Shown here: positions 26,222-59,039 of the stretch, one piece after another | Position numbering within the stretch: position 1 is the stretch's first letter | How the letters are laid out: each line of letters opens with the position of its first letter | IMG/VR virus record: IMGVR_UViG_3300032116_000013 | Span: 32,001 to 96,000 of that record | Source of the DNA: a virus | Length of the DNA stretch: 64,000 bases | Reading direction: 5' to 3' (one strand) | Position numbers and translations under genes: made by a program | The notes under the pieces: generated by a model | What the model was told of the DNA's origin: nothing | Database searches by the model: none | The model's input: only the letters and a program-made list of their open reading frames with translations

Positions 26222-26383
26222 ATGAAAAATCCATTTCGTGTTATCAAATCAAAAATTTTAAAACTGAAAACTCTGTTCACATACTTCTCAATAGTAAAAG
26301 AACAGAAAGGGTTCACTGCAGCCGTAAAATTTATTCCTAAAGCATACAGAAGAATAAACAGAAAAAATACCTATATAAAATAG
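26222..26383 (+). CDS. small basic ORF (53 aa)
   Basis: Open frame after CTAAATA, below the ORF-track cutoff. Confidence 0.35.
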   Translation: MKNPFRVIKSKILKLKTLFTYFSIVKEQKGFTAAVKFIPKAYRRINRKNTYIK

Positions 26384-26894: not shown

Positions 26895-27110
26895 ATGCCA
26901 GATCTAAAACTAACATGTGATAATTGCGGTTCTATGTTCGTGTTGTCTTATGACAACGACGAAGTTAGTTATTCGCCTAGCCATTGCCCATTCTGCGGCG
27001 ATTTCTATGATAATGAGAATGAAGAATTGGATTTTAATGATGATGGTGAATATGATGACGACATTCTTGAAGATCCTTTAGATGATGAAGACGATTTACG
27101 TCGTCATTAA
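26895..27110 (+). CDS. zinc-ribbon protein with acidic tail
   Basis: CDNC...CPFCG. Confidence 0.7.
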   Translation: MPDLKLTCDNCGSMFVLSYDNDEVSYSPSHCPFCGDFYDNENEELDFNDDGEYDDDILEDPLDDEDDLRRH

Positions 27111-27134
27111 CATTAAAAATACAGGAGTTATACT

Positions 27135-27845
27135 ATGAGTGGTTCAGCATTTTTTGATTGGGGGTGGATGCATATCAATGATGTGACTCTAATCACAAAA
27201 GAAATTTTTGTGGATAGGATTTATGAGAGATATAGAGAAGTTAAAGAAAATGATATTGTTATGGATATTGGTGCAAACGTCGGTGCATTTACGGCTTCTA
27301 TCTTAAAAAAGAAACCTAAAAGAATTTTTGCAATTGAACCTTCTAATACTCTAATTAATTCTCTTTGGACTAACACCCGATCAGAATATGTAACCTACAT
27401 AAATGCTGCTATAGAAGATGAAAAAAGAGAAAATGTTGATTCAACTGGAAGAGATACATTTGTTTATAATAACAATGGAAATTATTATAATGCAACAACT
27501 TTTAAGTCTATAATTGATGCGCATGATATCAAAACCATAGACTTTATGAAGGTTGACTGCGAAGGTGGAGAATATTCAGTCTTTAATGAAGAAAACAGAG
27601 AATTTATTTTAAACAATGTTAAATACATTGCTGGAGAATGGCATTTTGCTCCGAGCATACCTCAATTTGCACAAAAATTTAGATTGTTCAGAGACTTGTA
27701 TCTTGCAAATCACAAAAATTTCCACATATTCAATAATTCTAATATAGAAGTAACCGAGCATATTTTTAATGAATATTTTATGGATCTTTACGATTCGCAA
27801 CTTAAAGAAGACGCGCAACTAATGGTATACATTATTAACGAATAA
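27135..27845 (+). CDS. FkbM-family methyltransferase
   Basis: MDIGANVG, KVDCEGGE, GEWH. Confidence 0.85.
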   Translation: MSGSAFFDWGWMHINDVTLITKEIFVDRIYERYREVKENDIVMDIGANVGAFTASILKKKPKRIFAIEPSNTLINSLWTNTRSEYVTYINAAIEDEKRENVDSTGRDTFVYNNNGNYYNATTFKSIIDAHDIKTIDFMKVDCEGGEYSVFNEENREFILNNVKYIAGEWHFAPSIPQFAQKFRLFRDLYLANHKNFHIFNNSNIEVTEHIFNEYFMDLYDSQLKEDAQLMVYIINE

Positions 27846-28402
27846 TGATTTACGTTGGCATAGACTACAGTTTAACTTCGCCTTGCGTTTGTATCTCCAG
27901 AGACAAAACATTCTCAAATAGTTTCTTCTACTTTCTGAATGATCGTAAAACAGTTCTAGGAAAATTTCACAATATTCTTGGCGAACAACACGAAGAATAC
28001 CTAACGGACCAGGAGCGATATGAAAATATTGCTTCCTGGGTTCTAGGAATTCTTGCCGATTTTAAGAAAGAAGAAGTGATGGTCTTGATTGAAGATTATT
28101 CTTTTGGTTCCAAAGGCAGAGTTTTCAACCTTGCCGAAAATTGTGGAATTCTAAAGTACATGCTTTACAAGCAAGGATATAAATTCTTTACAGTTGCACC
28201 AACAGTTATCAAGAAGTATGCAACTGGCAAGGGTAATGCTACGAAAGAAAAAATGTATGATGCGTTTTTAAACGATACTTTTGTAGATTTACATAGTATA
28301 ATAAGTCCTACGACAAAACTGGGCTCACCGACAACTGACATCGTTGACGCTTGGTACATTGCAAGATATATGATAGACAAGACGGAAAAAGAAAAAGTAT
28401 AA
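27845..28402 (+). CDS. RuvC-like Holliday junction resolvase
   Basis: GIDYS, IEDYSF, GKGNA.K, DIVDA acidic residues. Confidence 0.75.
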   Translation: MIYVGIDYSLTSPCVCISRDKTFSNSFFYFLNDRKTVLGKFHNILGEQHEEYLTDQERYENIASWVLGILADFKKEEVMVLIEDYSFGSKGRVFNLAENCGILKYMLYKQGYKFFTVAPTVIKKYATGKGNATKEKMYDAFLNDTFVDLHSIISPTTKLGSPTTDIVDAWYIARYMIDKTEKEKV

Positions 28403-28424
28403 CACATAAAAGAGGAGCGTTACT

Positions 28425-28805
28425 ATGACCGAAAAGGAAATAAACGAAATAGATGGCGCTTTATGGGGACTTACACTTTCCCCTGATGGACAAGAAATTG
28501 AGTGTGACACTACAGTATACAAGTTTAACGACAAAGAAACTCCAATGAATGAGGATATTGGTTCACACAAATATAATATTTTCACGTTCAAGCCTAATGA
28601 GCCAGCAAACACTGCAGAGTTTATGAAGGCTCATATTGGCGATGTGCGTAGATTTATTGACAATTATGCGAAAGCAGGGTATAATGGTCTTATGGTAAAG
28701 GAAGGTTGTATACCAAAAAAGACAATCAAAGACATGATTAAAGTTACTTGTAAGAATTTTGATATTCCACAAAAAACATTGAAACCAATTTTAGCGCAGG
28801 TGTGA
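28425..28805 (+). CDS. hypothetical protein
   Basis: ORF with GAGGAG RBS. Confidence 0.65.
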   Translation: MTEKEINEIDGALWGLTLSPDGQEIECDTTVYKFNDKETPMNEDIGSHKYNIFTFKPNEPANTAEFMKAHIGDVRRFIDNYAKAGYNGLMVKEGCIPKKTIKDMIKVTCKNFDIPQKTLKPILAQV

Positions 28806-28810
28806 TACTT

Positions 28811-29071
28811 ATGACTATGTTTACTCGTGATGGTTTAGTTGATATGCTCAAGAACAACGTCGTGGTTGTTACGTTCACCAAGGTCAATGGTGAAGAGCGA
28901 GTGATGACTTGCACACTTCAAGCAAGTCACATTCCAAATGCTCCGACGCAAAAGGGTGAACTTGTGGTTGAAAAGAAAAGCAATAGCAATACTGTTTCAG
29001 CATGGGATGTAAATGCGAATGGCTGGCGTTCTTTCCGAGTGGAAAACGTCAAGTCAATTTCAATGGGATGA
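28811..29071 (+). CDS. WYL_2/SH3-like small phage protein
   Basis: FTKVNGEERVMTCTL...WD....WRSFR. Confidence 0.75.
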   Translation: MTMFTRDGLVDMLKNNVVVVTFTKVNGEERVMTCTLQASHIPNAPTQKGELVVEKKSNSNTVSAWDVNANGWRSFRVENVKSISMG

Positions 29072-29200
29072 AATACTAAATAACGAACCAGCCGCACAAC
29101 CTTTCGGTGTAGTGTTTGTCGCACAGCGATGGCTGCTTTTGTAAAAGAGGAATCTAGGACGCATTGCGCAGTGCGTGACGATAGATGAACCGAAACCTTT

Positions 29201-29398
29201 ATGATTCTACAACCAAAAACAAAATACGGACTGCAGTTCTTGCAGATGTACGGAAGCGAATGGTTTCTCATTCGCAAAATGGACTCTCACTATTCTTCAA
29301 AACGTCCAGGACCATGGGGTTATGTTCAGCAAGTTGATGGGCTGAAAACTTTTTTCGTACATTTACAAGATGACCCCCATTTCGTAATACAACGGTAA
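29201..29398 (+). CDS. hypothetical protein
   Basis: Short ORF in gene-sized gap. Confidence 0.5.
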   Translation: MILQPKTKYGLQFLQMYGSEWFLIRKMDSHYSSKRPGPWGYVQQVDGLKTFFVHLQDDPHFVIQR

Positions 29399-29437
29399 TA
29401 TCTTTTCTCTATATAATGACTCCATCAGGAGTCTCTA

Positions 29438-30211
29438 ATGCAATACAAATCAATCTTTATCTCCGATGTCCATCTCGGCTCCAAGGGATGCAAGGCTGAA
29501 TTACTTTCTGATTTTCTAAAAGAAAATACTTGCGAAAATCTATTCCTAGTCGGTGACATTATTGATGGCTGGCGACTCAAGAGAAAATTCTTTTGGTTGC
29601 AATCACACACTGATGTGATTCGTAAAATTCTCAAAGCAGCAAAAAATGGAACGAAGGTTATCTATGTTGTAGGCAATCACGATGATTCTTTCCGCGATCT
29701 TCTGCCGTACGATATTCATTTTGGTAATATCGAACTAGTCAATCAATGCCGCTATAATGCAATCAATGGCAAGAGATATATGGTAATTCATGGCGATTTA
29801 TTTGATGCTGCTCTTGCAACAAAACTTTCTTGGTTGTATCATGTTGGCGATTGGTTTTATGATATACTTTTGAGCATCAATCATGGATTGAATAAACTCC
29901 GCACTAAACTCAATATGCCATATTGGAGTTTGAGTGCATATCTAAAAAATAAAACAAAAGAAGCAGTTGCATTTATGTCTGATTTTGAAGTTCTCATCAC
30001 AGACTACTGCAGGAAATATAATACACAGGGTGTTATTTGCGGACACGTTCACAAAGCAGCAATCAAGGAAATCAATGGTATTGAATACATGAACGATGGT
30101 GACTGGGTTGAATCATGCACAGCATTGGTCGAGAATCATGATGGATCTTGGGAGATTGTGAATTATCTTCACAATATCGATAAGCGTAAAAAAATTGAAA
30201 AATTTTTGTAA
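29438..30211 (+). CDS. metallophosphoesterase, PlcP/LpxH-like
   Basis: ISDVHLG, VGDIIDGW, GNHD, HGD.FD, GHVH, NDGDWVESCTALVE. Confidence 0.85.
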   Translation: MQYKSIFISDVHLGSKGCKAELLSDFLKENTCENLFLVGDIIDGWRLKRKFFWLQSHTDVIRKILKAAKNGTKVIYVVGNHDDSFRDLLPYDIHFGNIELVNQCRYNAINGKRYMVIHGDLFDAALATKLSWLYHVGDWFYDILLSINHGLNKLRTKLNMPYWSLSAYLKNKTKEAVAFMSDFEVLITDYCRKYNTQGVICGHVHKAAIKEINGIEYMNDGDWVESCTALVENHDGSWEIVNYLHNIDKRKKIEKFL

Positions 30212-30236
30212 TATAATCTAAACGAAGGAGTCAGAA

Positions 30237-31271
30237 ATGAAAAAATTATTAGCAGTTATTGCATTGTCAACATTATCTGTTGCATCATATGCGCAAGGCA
30301 GAGATCAAATCGCAGTAGTCGGATCATCAACAGTTTATCCATTTACAACAACAGTCGCTGAGCAGTTCGGTCGTGCTGGAAAGTTCAAGTCACCTAAAGT
30401 TGAATCAACAGGCACAGGTGGTGGCATCAAGTTGTTCTGTAACGGTGTTGGTCCACAGTTTCCAGATGCTGTCAATGCATCACGCCGCATGAAGGCTGGT
30501 GAATTTGTTACATGCTCACAGAATGGTGTGAAAGATATTATTGAGATCAAGATTGGTTTCGATGGTCTTACGATTTCAGAATCAAAGAAAGGCAAACTCA
30601 GTGCGCTTACTCGCAAGGATGTTTACCTTGCTCTCGCAAAGCAGATTCCAAATCCATCAAATCCAACTGAATTGATTGCCAATCCAAACAAAACATGGAA
30701 GGATGTAAATCCTGCACTTCCAGCAATGAAGATTGAAGTTCTTGGACCACCGCCAACTTCTGGCACACGCGATTCATTTGCTGAATTGTTTATGGAAGCA
30801 GGATGCCAGCAATTCTCTTGGATCAAGTCACTCAAAGATATTGATGAAAAAAGATACAAGAGAGTTTGCCACACTATCCGCGAAGATGGTGCTTATATTG
30901 AAGCAGGTGAAAATGATAATTTGATTGCGCAAAAACTTGCAACCAATTCAAACGCTGTTGGTATTTTCGGTTTCTCATTCTTGGAAGAGAACGCAGATAA
31001 ACTAAAGGGTTTGAAGATTGATGGGATTGAGCCTACTTTCGAAACAATCGCCTCCGCTAAATATCCTACATCTCGACCATTGTTCGTTTATGTCAAGAAA
31101 GCACACATCGGTGTGATTCCTGGTTTGAAAGAATTCATGGCTGAGTATGTGAGTGATAAGGCAATCGGTGAGGAAGGTTATCTAACTGACCGTGGTCTTG
31201 TTGCTCTTGAAAAGTCAGCACTTACGAAAGTGCGTGCTGATGTCAATAATATGAAAAACTTTAAGCCATAA
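30237..31271 (+). CDS. pstS: phosphate ABC transporter substrate-binding protein
   Basis: VGSSTVYP, STGTGGG, ASRRMK, PP.SGTR, SRPLFVY; signal peptide. Confidence 0.9.
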   Translation: MKKLLAVIALSTLSVASYAQGRDQIAVVGSSTVYPFTTTVAEQFGRAGKFKSPKVESTGTGGGIKLFCNGVGPQFPDAVNASRRMKAGEFVTCSQNGVKDIIEIKIGFDGLTISESKKGKLSALTRKDVYLALAKQIPNPSNPTELIANPNKTWKDVNPALPAMKIEVLGPPPTSGTRDSFAELFMEAGCQQFSWIKSLKDIDEKRYKRVCHTIREDGAYIEAGENDNLIAQKLATNSNAVGIFGFSFLEENADKLKGLKIDGIEPTFETIASAKYPTSRPLFVYVKKAHIGVIPGLKEFMAEYVSDKAIGEEGYLTDRGLVALEKSALTKVRADVNNMKNFKP

Positions 31272-31297
31272 TTTCGTGGCGCAACAAGGAGAAAGAT

Positions 31298-32479
31298 ATG
31301 CGTAAAGCAATTCAATCATTAGTTATTTTGGGATCATTACTCGTCGGAAGCGTGACACATGCTGCAGACTCTGCTGAAATTCAACAAGCAGTAGATGGTT
31401 TGTCAGATGCGTTCGCTAAAGACATTGCACTTCGCTGGAAGTGGAAAGGTGATTTTCGTGTAAGAAACGAGAACATCGATCAAGCACTTGCAGTTGAGCG
31501 CAATCGTAGTCGTGTTCGTGTTCGTCTTGGTTTTGATGCTGAAGTAAATCCAACTGTAAGAGCAGGTTTTCAATTTGCTACAACAGAAAATGGAGATGCT
31601 CGTTCAAGCAATCAAACACTTGGTGATGTCAATTCACGAAAGGCACTTGATCTCGATCTAGCATATGTTGAGTGGGCACCAAACGCAGTATCCAAGGTTA
31701 CACTTGGTAAGATGAAGCAACCTCTTGTTACAACGACATCTTATTTCGTTGACAAGGATATTAATCCAGAGGGTGCTGCTCTTGCGTTTAATCACGCACC
31801 AACAGGCGCATTTGTAAATGCTGCAATGTTTGATCTCGTTGAGCGTGGCTCAGCAGTTGATTCAACAGCAGTTGCAATGCAAGTTGGTCTACGTGGAAAA
31901 CTCAATGACGAAACTGCTTATGTTGTTGCCGTTGGTCAAACAAACCATCGCGCAGTGAAGAATCAAGCAGTTGTGCAGTCAGGTGCTGCAGGTGGTTTCT
32001 TTGGCAACACGACCAAAACAACTGGATGTGCTGCTGGAGTTGCTACATGCCTTGCTAATGAATTTGAAGTCCGCAATGCACTTGCTGAACTTTCAACAGT
32101 TGTTGCTGATTATCCAGTAACAGTATTTGTTGATTGGGCAGAAAATGCAAAAGCAGCCAAACTCAACAAGGCACTTGCATACGGAGTCACCCTCGGAAAA
32201 GCATCACTTCCAAATTCATGGGAAGTTGGTGTAGTTTCTCAGAAGGTAGAAAAGGATGCATTGTTTGGTCAATGGATTGACTCAGACTTCGCTGCTGGTA
32301 ACACAGATGGCGACGGATACGCACTTCGCGGCGTTTATCAGGTTGCTAAGAATTGGAAGTTGAACGCCACTTACATGGTGAATAAGACTAACAATGATGT
32401 GCCAGTTGTGATCAATGGAAAGAATGTTCTAGATCGCGATTATAAGCGACTACAACTTGATCTGAACTTTGCGTTCTAA
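31298..32479 (+). CDS. outer-membrane beta-barrel porin, probably phosphate-related
   Basis: Signal peptide, GDFRVR, amphipathic strands, C-terminal LDLNFAF. Confidence 0.8.
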   Translation: MRKAIQSLVILGSLLVGSVTHAADSAEIQQAVDGLSDAFAKDIALRWKWKGDFRVRNENIDQALAVERNRSRVRVRLGFDAEVNPTVRAGFQFATTENGDARSSNQTLGDVNSRKALDLDLAYVEWAPNAVSKVTLGKMKQPLVTTTSYFVDKDINPEGAALAFNHAPTGAFVNAAMFDLVERGSAVDSTAVAMQVGLRGKLNDETAYVVAVGQTNHRAVKNQAVVQSGAAGGFFGNTTKTTGCAAGVATCLANEFEVRNALAELSTVVADYPVTVFVDWAENAKAAKLNKALAYGVTLGKASLPNSWEVGVVSQKVEKDALFGQWIDSDFAAGNTDGDGYALRGVYQVAKNWKLNATYMVNKTNNDVPVVINGKNVLDRDYKRLQLDLNFAF

Positions 32480-32500
32480 TCTAGTCTGCTACTAGAGATT

Positions 32501-32530
32501 GAAAAGAGGGACTTCGGTCCCTCTTTTCAT
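32501..32530 (+). terminator. intrinsic terminator
   Basis: GAAAAGAGGGAC-TTCG-GTCCCTCTTTTC. Confidence 0.85.
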
Positions 32531-32536
32531 TTCTGA

Positions 32537-32626
32537 CGTAAGTTATTGATTTTATTAGGGTTTTCGTAAGTTATTGATTTCATTAGAGTTTTTACTATTG
32601 CCTTTTTAGGCGAAAAGGCGCATAAT
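32537..32626 (+). promoter_or_regulatory. repeated early promoter cassette A (two motif copies)
   Basis: CGTAAGTTATTGATT motif at 32537 and 32565; TTGCCT-17-CATAAT. Confidence 0.8.
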
Positions 32627-32636
32627 ATCTGATACT

Positions 32637-32840
32637 ATGAAAATATATTACGAAGTTTACGAAAACGCGCGAGTCAACCACCCGATTACGGGGGAACGGG
32701 TCAACGGGAATAAAAAAATCCTGACGACCAAGAACCGTAAGAAGGCGCTCGACCTATACCGCGAGAAGGAAAAGACTCGGTGGGTCGAGGAAATTACAGA
32801 CTATGGGAGCGGCGGGAGCACCGATATCATAACTGAGTAA
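32637..32840 (+). CDS. early hypothetical protein
   Basis: First ORF after cassette A. Confidence 0.6.
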   Translation: MKIYYEVYENARVNHPITGERVNGNKKILTTKNRKKALDLYREKEKTRWVEEITDYGSGGSTDIITE

Positions 32841-32891
32841 GGGTAAACCCTGCGCCTCCCCTCGGGCTTTTAATGCGGTTCTAGGGGATGG

Positions 32892-32953
32892 CGTAAGTTA
32901 TTGATTTCATTAGGGTTTTCACCCTTTACTTTTTCGGTAAAATCACGCATAAT
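32892..32953 (+). promoter_or_regulatory. repeated early promoter cassette B
   Basis: Motif plus TTTACT-17-CATAAT. Confidence 0.8.
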
Positions 32954-32959
32954 ACTTCT

Positions 32960-33166
32960 ATGATAAACGAAAACACCGACGCGCAGGTTAAAGCGCAAAT
33001 TATCCAACGCATTAACGCACTCAAGCCCGACGCGATAGCGCACGGATTCGACTACCCGACGCAGGCACCCGAGACCGCAACGGTCGCCGAACTTTTAGAT
33101 TTTCTGGTAGAGATTTCAGCGTATATCGGCGCAGCCGCCAGCCAGCCGCCGACTGTAAGTCATTAA
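32960..33166 (+). CDS. early hypothetical protein
   Basis: First ORF after cassette B. Confidence 0.6.
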   Translation: MINENTDAQVKAQIIQRINALKPDAIAHGFDYPTQAPETATVAELLDFLVEISAYIGAAASQPPTVSH

Positions 33167-33215
33167 TTTCATTAGGGTTTTTACTATTGCCTTTTTACAA
33201 GAAAAAGCGCATAAT
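33155..33215 (+). promoter_or_regulatory. repeated early promoter cassette C
   Basis: Motif plus TTGCCT-17-CATAAT. Confidence 0.8.
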
Positions 33216-33247
33216 AGTTGTATGATAAATGATAAGGTGAAAGTCTA

Positions 33248-34126
33248 ATGCCTCGTGGTGTACCTAAGAACGGTTTCCGTAACACTCGCAAGCGTCGTCT
33301 TGCTGGAATCAAGGTTTCTTCTTCTCCTGCCTTCGTTCAGCCTGTTCGGGTTGAGTCGGTGGTCGAGATCGAAGCCAAGTTGAAGGATCGATTCGAGGCT
33401 CTCGAAATTATGTCCGAAGCAACGGGCAAGGGCATCAACCGATCGCTGATCGTTTCTGGTCCCGCTGGTCTTGGTAAGTCCTTCACGGTCGAAGCCAAGA
33501 TGGCGGAACTCGAGTCCAAGGGTCATAACGTAGTATACATCAAGGGTTACGTTCGTCCTCTTGCGCTCTACAAGTTGCTGTACGAAACTCGGTTCTCGAA
33601 CAGCGTTCTTGTGTTCGATGACTCTGACTCCATCTTTCATGATGACGTCAGCATGAATCTTCTGAAGGGTGCTTGCGATTCTACGGATCGTCGCGTTCTT
33701 CACTGGTTGTCGCGTTCACTCGAGCGTGAGTCGGATGAAGATGGCGAAAATATTCCTGAGAAGTTTGAATTCGAGGGTTCGATCATCTTCATCACCAACT
33801 ACGACTTCGACTCGCTCATCGCTTCGGGTAACAAGTTGGCTCCGCACTTTGAGGCTCTTGTGTCTCGTTCGCACTATCTGGATCTTGCGATGAAGACCAA
33901 GATGGATTATCTTGTTCGCATCAAGCAAGTTGTGCGTGGCGGTATGCTGAAGTCGCGTGGTCTGAACACCATCGACGAAACGCTGATCATGCAGTTTATC
34001 GAAAACAACGTTGACCGTTTGCGTGAGTTGTCGCTGCGAATGGTTGTCAAGATCTCTGGTCTGTATAAGATGGACAAGAGCAACTGGCAAAAGTTGGCGA
34101 AGCAGACTTGCTTCCGCGCTGCTTAA
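33248..34126 (+). CDS. P-loop (AAA-like) ATPase
   Basis: Walker A GPAGLGKS, Walker B VLVFDD. Confidence 0.85.
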   Translation: MPRGVPKNGFRNTRKRRLAGIKVSSSPAFVQPVRVESVVEIEAKLKDRFEALEIMSEATGKGINRSLIVSGPAGLGKSFTVEAKMAELESKGHNVVYIKGYVRPLALYKLLYETRFSNSVLVFDDSDSIFHDDVSMNLLKGACDSTDRRVLHWLSRSLERESDEDGENIPEKFEFEGSIIFITNYDFDSLIASGNKLAPHFEALVSRSHYLDLAMKTKMDYLVRIKQVVRGGMLKSRGLNTIDETLIMQFIENNVDRLRELSLRMVVKISGLYKMDKSNWQKLAKQTCFRAA

Positions 34127-34138
34127 TTGGAAAACAAA

Positions 34139-34327
34139 ATGTTTAAATTGCGAAATTACAACGAATTCAAAAATCATATACGGTGGCACGACTACTTTGC
34201 CATCATGATCAATGAATTTGCTGTCGTTCAAGTCCGCCGTTACGAATGGTTTGACAAGGAACAGTATACCTTTGTCATTCAAGTATTTGGATTTACCGTG
34301 TTTCAGCGCACAGGAAATATGCGATGA
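34139..34327 (+). CDS. hypothetical protein
   Basis: Short in-operon ORF. Confidence 0.5.
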   Translation: MFKLRNYNEFKNHIRWHDYFAIMINEFAVVQVRRYEWFDKEQYTFVIQVFGFTVFQRTGNMR

Positions 34328-37271: not shown

Positions 37272-37333
37272 CGTAAGTCATTGATTCTATTAAGGTTTTT
37301 ATCGTTTACTTTTTCGACGAAAAAGCGCATAAT
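37272..37333 (+). promoter_or_regulatory. repeated early promoter cassette D
   Basis: Motif plus TTTACT-17-CATAAT. Confidence 0.8.
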
Positions 37334-58904: not shown

Positions 58905-59039
58905 GCAAGTCATTGATTCTATTAGGGATTCCCCATCTGGGTAAATTCTTGTAAGTTATTGATTTTACAAGGGTTTTCGTAAGTTATTGATTCTATTAGG
59001 TTTTTTACTATTGCCATTTTGACCCATTTTAGGCATAAT
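58905..59039 (+). promoter_or_regulatory. repeated early promoter cassette F (three motif copies)
   Basis: Motif at about 58905, 58951 and 58978; TTGCCA-17-CATAAT. Confidence 0.8.

Follow-up and report, generated by a model that had tools for sequence, protein, structure and literature searches.

The stretch of DNA considered here (the window; 64,000 nucleotides) comprises bases 32001-96000 of IMG/VR record IMGVR_UViG_3300032116_000013, a viral genome of 197,424 bp that is rated complete (CheckV 100%). The record derives from a lytic T4-like phage from water. It has a gene for a major capsid protein of the gp23 type (PF07068, E = 1.8e-131) along with genes for an endolysin, a virion structural protein, a tail fiber, a primase, a ribonucleotide reductase, and a RuvC-like resolvase, and its long open reading frames (ORFs) lie almost all on a single strand. 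Three adjacent genes on the + strand of the window are the subject of this analysis. The first (29438-30211) encodes a PlcP-type metallophosphoesterase of 257 amino acids (P0001) that lacks a signal peptide and is predicted to be a phospholipase C acting on inner-membrane glycerophospholipids. The second (30237-31271) encodes a PstS-family periplasmic phosphate-binding protein of 344 amino acids (P0002) with an N-terminal signal peptide and no lipobox cysteine. The third (31298-32479) encodes an outer-membrane porin of 393 amino acids (P0003) consisting of a signal peptide, a periplasmic N-terminal helix, and a beta-barrel with a C-terminal phenylalanine. The genes are separated by gaps of 25 and 26 nucleotides, each has a GGAG-type ribosome-binding site, and a terminator scan predicted no terminator within either gap. 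An intrinsic terminator follows on the same strand at 32500-32535, with a hairpin (32500-32529) formed by a 13-bp stem and a UUCG loop and with a U-rich tail. The hairpin has a folding energy of -27 kcal/mol (z = -5.8 versus shuffled sequences), and the simple terminator scan did not list it. Judged by this arrangement, the three genes constitute one predicted transcription unit that ends at the hairpin.

The product of the first gene is a calcineurin-type metallophosphoesterase (Metallophos, E = 2.4e-11) in which the metal-binding and catalytic motifs (DxH, GDxxD, GNHD, HGD, and GHxH) are all intact. It retains 43 of the 43 residues that are invariant, or have a single exception, among 49 family members, and its C-terminal block, EYMNDGDWVESCTALVE, is identical to that of proteins linked to agt (the glycosyltransferase gene of the bacterial PlcP-Agt pathway). 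The protein is 45-56% identical to the proteins at the head of plcP-agt operons compared with 20-28% for LpxH-type proteins (20% for Escherichia coli LpxH). It scores far below the cut-offs of the LpxH equivalog models (44.2 bits versus 134 for NF003743 and 40.2 bits versus 190.35 for TIGR01854), and solved LpxH proteins match its sequence only at E ~1e-3. In the phylogenetic tree the protein lies within an all-viral clade of 23 sequences nested in a group that holds the agt-linked proteins, and the LpxH-type sequences are separated from it (SH-aLRT 96), although the branches are very long and the exact placement is unsure. By these comparisons the first gene encodes a PlcP-type enzyme and not LpxH, and its product would be expected to have phospholipase C activity on glycerophospholipids. 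The AlphaFold2 model (pLDDT confidence score of 80.8) consists of a metallophosphoesterase core and a helical lid of low confidence (pLDDT 48-63). When it was searched with Foldseek, the top 25 matches were all LpxH (template modeling [TM] scores of 0.51-0.63, best match ~0.55, 16-20% identity). LpxH (PDB 5K8K, 5B49, and 6PIB) shares this core and likewise bears, between motifs IV and V, an inserted helical lid that binds lipid, but the LpxH-like fold is found across the superfamily; the model fits a lipid-directed phosphoesterase and does not separate PlcP from LpxH. The motif GNRD in place of GNHD was considered as a discriminator of LpxH from PlcP and was rejected, as GNRD is present in E. 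coli LpxH but GNHD occurs in two other LpxH-like outgroups.

The plcP-agt operon is known from marine and soil bacteria, including Erythrobacter of the Erythrobacteraceae, the family to which Croceicoccus also belongs (PMC4796936, PMC9239053, and PMC13691135). A scan of species-representative genomes recovered cellular relatives of the phage protein (39-56% identical) from Kordiimonas, Croceicoccus, Parvibaculales, Roseomonas, Henriciella, Sulfurovaceae, Crocinitomicaceae, and a verrucomicrobial metagenome-assembled genome (MAG). According to Pfam, the next gene downstream is a co-directional family 4 glycosyltransferase (GT4) gene encoding 334-374 amino acids in all five alphaproteobacterial loci tested, a patatin phospholipase gene in Sulfurovaceae, and a family 2 glycosyltransferase (GT2) gene in Crocinitomicaceae; by BLAST, 26 of 38 cell loci are PlcP-GT4 loci. 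The GT4-followed proteins of Parvibaculales, Kordiimonas, Croceicoccus, and Roseomonas are those that reach 45-56% identity to the phage protein. The Sulfurovaceae and Crocinitomicaceae genomes also encode a second, more LpxH-like paralog (24-28% identical to the phage protein), and the Kordiimonas genome, the one alphaproteobacterial genome searched for this, gave no second match to the LpxH model. Two cellular entries resemble the viral proteins closely. A Crocinitomicaceae MAG contig (L005) contains the same plcP-GT2 pair as some phages and clusters with the viral sequences. The other entry (L038; NZIN01000059.1, "Rickettsiales bacterium MED606") encodes a PlcP-like protein that barely differs from the one in Pelagibacter phage Mosig (branch lengths of 0.02 and 0.09) and contains no pstS within 8 kb upstream of the plcP-like gene; either a contig of a pelagimyophage was binned here as a cell, or the gene was transferred very recently.

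The same pairing of plcP with a glycosyltransferase gene is found in the phages themselves. Homologs of the first gene were confirmed at 123 places in IMG/VR, of which 80 were retrieved and 68, those with at least 1.1 kb of downstream sequence, were counted. The gene directly after viral plcP encodes a GT4 protein in 44 of the 68 loci, usually overlapping the plcP stop codon, and a GT2 protein in 7 (51 of 68 together). The viral GT4 proteins are 40-41% identical over their full length to the GT4 proteins at the agt position of Parvibaculales and Kordiimonas. Most related phages therefore carry what looks like a whole bacterial lipid-renovation operon. This pairing, which was absent from the original prediction, is regarded as the strongest support for the idea put forward there and extends it.

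The second gene product matches PBP_like_2 (PF12849) over profile positions 3-267 of 267 (E = 1.2e-50) and is 47% identical to PstS of Pelagibacter phage Mosig. It scores 151.5 bits against TIGR02136, under the cut-off of 206.6, and is a divergent member of the PstS family, as expected for phage copies. Its N-terminal hydrophobic signal, read by eye, ends in SYA, which resembles AYA. The same genome contains phoH (PF02562, E = 4e-49) at positions 96978-97589 of the record, about 1 kb past the end of the window; phoH is a common phage "phosphate-starvation" marker.

The third gene product scores 82.8 bits against Porin_5 (PF16930; cut-off of 22), is placed in Porin_5 together with proteins from mixed phyla in the ESM Atlas, and ends in LNFAF, with a C-terminal aromatic residue being present in all viral homologs. 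Some of its close homologs have a precomputed match to PF07396. The AlphaFold2 model (pLDDT 77.8) has its best solved matches in OmpM1, OmpF/OmpC, and PhoE-type trimeric porins (Foldseek E of 1e-15 to 1e-11), and no homolog in the PDB was detected by sequence. On the basis of the family match and the model, the protein is a genuine beta-barrel porin of the Porin_5 family. The 120 best database relatives, each on a short contig or a phage contig, share at least 79% identity with it, and no homolog was found in any INPHARED phage record. Use of the porin to infer the host was abandoned, since the matches in 401 Pseudomonadota were distant and lacked taxon labels.

These results uphold what had been proposed for the individual genes. 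The original prediction described three adjacent genes closed by one strong terminator, and the + strand positions and the -27 kcal/mol hairpin given above now define that unit exactly. Its PlcP-like first protein groups with the heads of plcP-agt operons, has intact metal motifs, and stands apart from LpxH in the phylogeny that had been suggested as a check, so that the grouping with LpxH named there as a ground for refutation was not seen. Its PstS is supported by the full-length PBP_like_2 match and the export signal, and its porin by the Porin_5 beta-barrel.

The order plcP-pstS-porin is not confined to the window. It was also found in L043/46, L044/56, L051, L052, and L053, which amount to at least five independent viral contigs with 35-96% amino acid identity, and the contig L036 carries pstS and porin genes behind the 3' end of plcP, the only part of plcP that the contig contains. 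Related arrangements include pstS-porin-plcP-agt in the 188-kb phage L042, pstS-plcP-glycosyltransferase in L109, L113, and L122, plcP-GT2-porin in L082, L085, and L086, and plcP-GT4-porin in L098. In the plcP-GT2-porin loci (L082:6895-8708, L085:2786-4573, and L086:6283-8081) the GT2 gene is followed by a porin of ~319 amino acids that is 34% identical to the porin of the window and has no N-terminal helix. No DNA-level relatives were found among deposited phages. In the more distant L103 (4937-10803), L104, and L105, plcP lies between the primase and ribonucleotide reductase genes, with a neighboring GT4 gene in L103 and no glycosyltransferase gene detected in L104 and L105. Since plcP occupies this other site in the three contigs, the gene seems to be retained while it shifts within the phage genome.

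Four contigs (L044, L050, L059, and L071) share the flanking genes of the window (the RuvC-like gene, the WYL_2 gene, and the genes at 32637, 33248, 34718, and 35837) at 43-91% amino acid identity, and the difference among them is confined to the position behind plcP. This position holds pstS-porin in L044, agt in L071, agt (a GT4 gene at L059:6711-7751) and an 838-amino-acid gene in L059, and only an 834-amino-acid gene in L050. The L050 gene (L050:6797-9301) encodes a TonB-dependent receptor in which Plug and beta-barrel domains are present; by BLAST, it is matched by the L059 gene (L059:7809-10325). A gene in L042 (L042:9486-12032) is assigned as a receptor from size and position only, and the genes of this set encode 834-848 amino acids. 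No TonB-dependent receptor was found in the genome to which the window belongs. Relative to the window, pstS and porin of L042 are 84% and 81% identical whereas plcP is only 76% identical and falls in another subclade; because pstS and porin are closer to those of the window than plcP is, the pstS-porin pair appears to move as a unit. In L042 the pair lies upstream of plcP, and in the window it lies downstream of it. Taken from this comparative synteny, the site is a putative swappable envelope/nutrient cassette.

The ratio of nonsynonymous to synonymous substitution rates (dN/dS), computed against four relatives at dS of 0.5-2.7, is 0.04 for plcP, 0.08-0.16 for pstS, and 0.12-0.25 for the porin gene, the fastest evolving of the three. 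All compared copies are intact, with no stop codon. This purifying selection (dN/dS of 0.04-0.25) indicates that the three genes are maintained by the phage. Because the trio recurs on independent contigs with low dN/dS and without a stop codon in any copy, the gene order is far beyond chance adjacency.

The reading favored here, with a probability of roughly 60%, is that the cassette is a phosphorus-mobilizing auxiliary unit of a lytic T4-like phage. According to this model, the unit would be transcribed from a phage promoter just upstream and transcription would stop at the hairpin. The first gene product would remain in the cytoplasm, dock on the inner membrane through its helical lid, and cleave glycerophospholipids of the host to yield diacylglycerol and a phospho-head group, from which host phosphatases would free phosphorus for nucleotide and phage DNA synthesis. 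PstS would provide extra phosphate binding in the periplasm for the host PstCAB importer, and the porin would act as an outer-membrane diffusion pore that admits more phosphate and small phosphorus compounds to the periplasm. Cyanophage PstS, as described in PMC12379486 and papers cited there, supplements host PstCAB. In most related phages, an Agt-like enzyme would turn the diacylglycerol into a phosphorus-free glycolipid, which would keep the membrane intact. In the lineage of the window the pstS-porin pair would have taken the place of the agt partner; without agt, the diacylglycerol would be left for host enzymes to handle, which may be tolerable for a lytic phage. In the window, no gene for a non-phosphorus lipid adjoins plcP, as the next genes are pstS and porin. 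Among bacterial genes, plcP types 4 and 6 have likewise been reported without an adjacent gene of this kind (PMC4796936). What the genes are, how the operon is built, which families they fall in, and their synteny, conservation, and purifying selection are observed features of the DNA, while the enzyme activity, substrates, pore selectivity, timing, and benefit to the phage are deduced from them.

Several points weigh against this reading. The first gene is assigned by its synteny, its level of identity, and the residues that it conserves, with the characterized proteins SMc00171, MED193_17359, PB7211_983, PA3219, and BCAL2364 lying outside the comparison. No Agt homolog was found in the 197-kb genome, which has only a distant gene with a family 1 glycosyltransferase (GT1) domain 134 kb away. 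Phosphate selectivity of the porin is not supported: its score against Porin_O_P is 17.4 bits, under the cut-off of 20.9, and OprP and OprO are not among its 50 best fold matches. The porin also has no close cellular relative in 401 sampled Pseudomonadota, where matches are 25-42% identical (a best-match identity of 31% is also given). No Pho box of the enterobacterial type (CTGTCAT-type repeat or TGTCAT half-site) is present in 26955-34273, although the Pho box of the host may differ, and on that account nothing points to control by the phosphate status of the host of the kind seen in cyanophages. Finally, the TonB-dependent receptor that some sister phages have at the same site agrees no less well with a broader role in envelope and nutrient uptake than with one specific to phosphate.

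In the main rival account, the cassette remodels the envelope for the protection of the phage itself; receptors would be altered or masked, blocking superinfection or the adsorption of progeny to infected cells and debris, and PstS would be the sole true nutrient gene. Bacterial lipid remodeling changes phage adsorption and predation, as reported in PMC9938194, PMC9804370, and PMC9457565, the variable site holds diverse outer-membrane proteins (porins of two size classes as well as a TonB-dependent receptor), and the porin is the fastest evolving of the three proteins, with dN/dS of up to 0.25. This account is nonetheless considered unlikely. PlcP acts on phospholipids of the cytoplasmic face and is very strongly conserved (dN/dS of 0.04), plcP is repeatedly linked to pstS, for which no exclusion role is known, and its pairing with agt mirrors a pathway known to be set off by phosphorus starvation. 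Nutrition is favored over envelope remodeling because plcP is linked to pstS tightly and repeatedly and is extremely conserved. The three proteins do not match any defense model of PADLOC, and a role in defense or anti-defense was set aside on that ground.

Two other explanations appear highly improbable. If the first gene encoded a true LpxH-type UDP-2,3-diacylglucosamine pyrophosphatase, as automatic annotation has it, it would boost or alter host lipid A synthesis; close homologs are indeed named LpxH in their sources, LpxH is the best solved-structure match, and a virome survey counts viral "lpxH" under lipopolysaccharide synthesis (PMC10653327). The scores of 40-44 bits, where the cut-offs are 134 and 190, the 20% identity to E. 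coli LpxH, and the very long branches contradict this identity, and the cellular homologs, including those of Alphaproteobacteria, are located in plcP-agt operons while Sulfurovaceae and Crocinitomicaceae have their LpxH-like paralog as a separate gene. LpxH was rejected as the identity of the first gene for these reasons. It is just as hard to sustain that the trio was taken up recently from a host, or is an artifact of chimeric assembly, and serves no function in the phage. Cellular family relatives of the genes exist, and the near-identical 3-kb contig L036 (RGSB01000085.1, 3150 bp), with the end of plcP, pstS, and porin being 94, 91, and 82% identical to the window, was deposited in a bacterial MAG. 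However, this MAG is labeled Actinomycetota, the binning is probably wrong, and L036 is probably a mis-binned phage fragment. An outer-membrane porin of this kind would not be expected from Actinomycetota. Moreover, the genes are flanked by conserved phage genes in several independent assemblies, all copies are intact at the dN/dS and dS values given above, and for each of the three the nearest relatives are found in viruses or on short metagenome contigs rather than in cell genomes.

The phosphorus-mobilizing unit can be compared with several known systems. The bacterial PlcP-Agt pathway has been described in Sinorhizobium meliloti (SMc00171), Phaeobacter (MED193_17359), Pelagibacter HTCC7211 (PB7211_983/960), Pseudomonas aeruginosa, Methylosinus OB3b, and Burkholderia cenocepacia (BCAL2364-66) (PMC4796936, PMC9239053, and PMC13691135). 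By identity, residues, and fold the phage enzyme belongs to the same family, and most related phages share the order of plcP followed by an Agt-like GT4 or a GT2 gene. The window differs in that the genes are encoded by a lytic T4-like phage, that pstS and porin replace agt, and that a phage-type promoter box is present with no recognized Pho box. The pstS genes of cyanomyophages and pelagimyophages likewise encode a secreted PstS in T4-like aquatic phages that is presumed to feed PstCAB (PMC12379486; bioRxiv 10.1101/2021.07.20.453049), but pstS of the window appears to be co-transcribed with genes for a lipid phosphoesterase and a porin. In the cultured T4-like Pelagibacter phage Mosig EXVC030M (MT647606), Mosig_00119/00120 are adjacent genes whose products are a PstS with 47% identity and a PlcP-like protein with 52% identity. 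Unlike the window, the Mosig pair is divergent and is accompanied by neither porin nor agt. The porin of the window resembles PhoE of E. coli and OprP/OprO of Pseudomonas in having a trimeric-porin-type barrel and in adjoining a phosphate-uptake gene, and PhoE (1PHO) is among its fold matches. It differs from them in belonging to the uncharacterized Porin_5 family, in an extra N-terminal helix like the OmpM1 stalk, and in being encoded by a lytic phage. LpxH differs from the first protein in genomic context as well as in sequence. Porins are also carried by other phages, an example being Lc of phage PA-2.

That phages carry pstS is well established, as the original prediction noted; the gene has been described for cyanomyophages and, in 2025, for pelagimyophages (PMC12379486). 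The original prediction also noted that PlcP-like proteins are often annotated as UDP-2,3-diacylglucosamine hydrolase, and the Mosig enzyme is labeled a putative UDP-2,3-diacylglucosamine hydrolase. It was not aware of a description of the trio in a phage. A full-text search, with most subscription journals outside its coverage, found no paper on a phage-encoded PlcP, a phage plcP-agt operon, or the trio, and neither the Mosig genome announcement nor the pelagimyophage survey discusses the genes for PstS and the PlcP-like protein. On the other hand, the trio is not unique to the window, and the genes for a PlcP-like protein and PstS are adjacent in the published Mosig genome. Phage phosphorus auxiliary genes and the bacterial PlcP-Agt pathway are known, and the probable use of that pathway by phages, as read from these genomes, is apparently new.

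A wider proposal, which is tentative and given slightly less than even odds, is that T4-like phages of aquatic Gram-negative bacteria widely carry a complete PlcP-Agt operon that turns host phospholipid into phosphorus-free glycolipid and directs the phosphorus to phage DNA, and that, at the site behind plcP, lineages exchange modules (agt, pstS-porin, or TonB-dependent receptor) to suit the nutrient stress of their surroundings. Phage particles are very rich in phosphorus, and in lakes and oceans a shortage of it therefore often limits their production; the known viral answers to this limitation are pstS, phoA, and phoH. If the phosphorus-mobilizing reading holds, host membrane phospholipids would be a further source of phosphorus for this phage group, reached through PlcP with or without Agt. 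The abundance of plcP in metagenomes serves as a marker of bacterial phosphorus stress; part of the "lipid remodeling" signal and of the plcP counts in low-phosphate waters would then be viral, and viral "lpxH" genes counted under lipopolysaccharide synthesis would need to be reassigned. The cassette would also offer a testable case of a phage that equips the inner-membrane lipid, the periplasm, and the outer membrane for nutrient capture. The porins and TonB-dependent receptors of lytic phages have been little studied.

The DNA upstream of plcP contains two further elements on the + strand. The CTATATAA box (29409-29416), a candidate phage promoter element, lies 22 nucleotides before the start codon of the plcP-like gene. 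Its position is kept before the orthologous gene in L043, L044, L050, and L059 despite diverged flanking DNA, and a variant, CTATATAC, occupies it in L071. With four copies, all on the + strand, CTATATAA is not significantly enriched in the window, and it was dropped as an enriched promoter word; only the conserved position counts. Another CTATATAA copy precedes a structured RNA at 26381. The second element is a short hairpin (29418-29433; arms GACTCC and GGAGTC), read from the sequence, whose 3' arm contains the Shine-Dalgarno sequence of the first gene. At the orthologous sites of L043, L044, and L050 the hairpin is kept with other arm sequences, i.e., with compensatory changes. Its role could be in the stability of the mRNA 5' end or in translational control, and the box and hairpin together may represent a phage promoter plus a 5' mRNA hairpin.

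On the other side of the cassette, repeated early-promoter cassettes start at 32538, right behind the terminator. The 21-nucleotide word GTAAGTTATTGATTTYATTAG occurs in nine + strand copies (zero expected) located within 32538-33215 and also at 37273, 41947, and 58905-58999 of the window. The copies past the terminator directly precede promoters of the type TTGCCT-17-CATAAT (32598, 32925, and 33187), and because of their position before promoters 3' of the terminator, the cassette seems to end where a block of early transcription units begins. A perfect sigma-70 consensus promoter (TTGACA, 17 nucleotides, TATAAT; 12 of 12 positions) is present at 28657-28685, within an ORF of 126 amino acids (28425-28805) and upstream of the gene encoding the WYL_2 domain (28802-29071).

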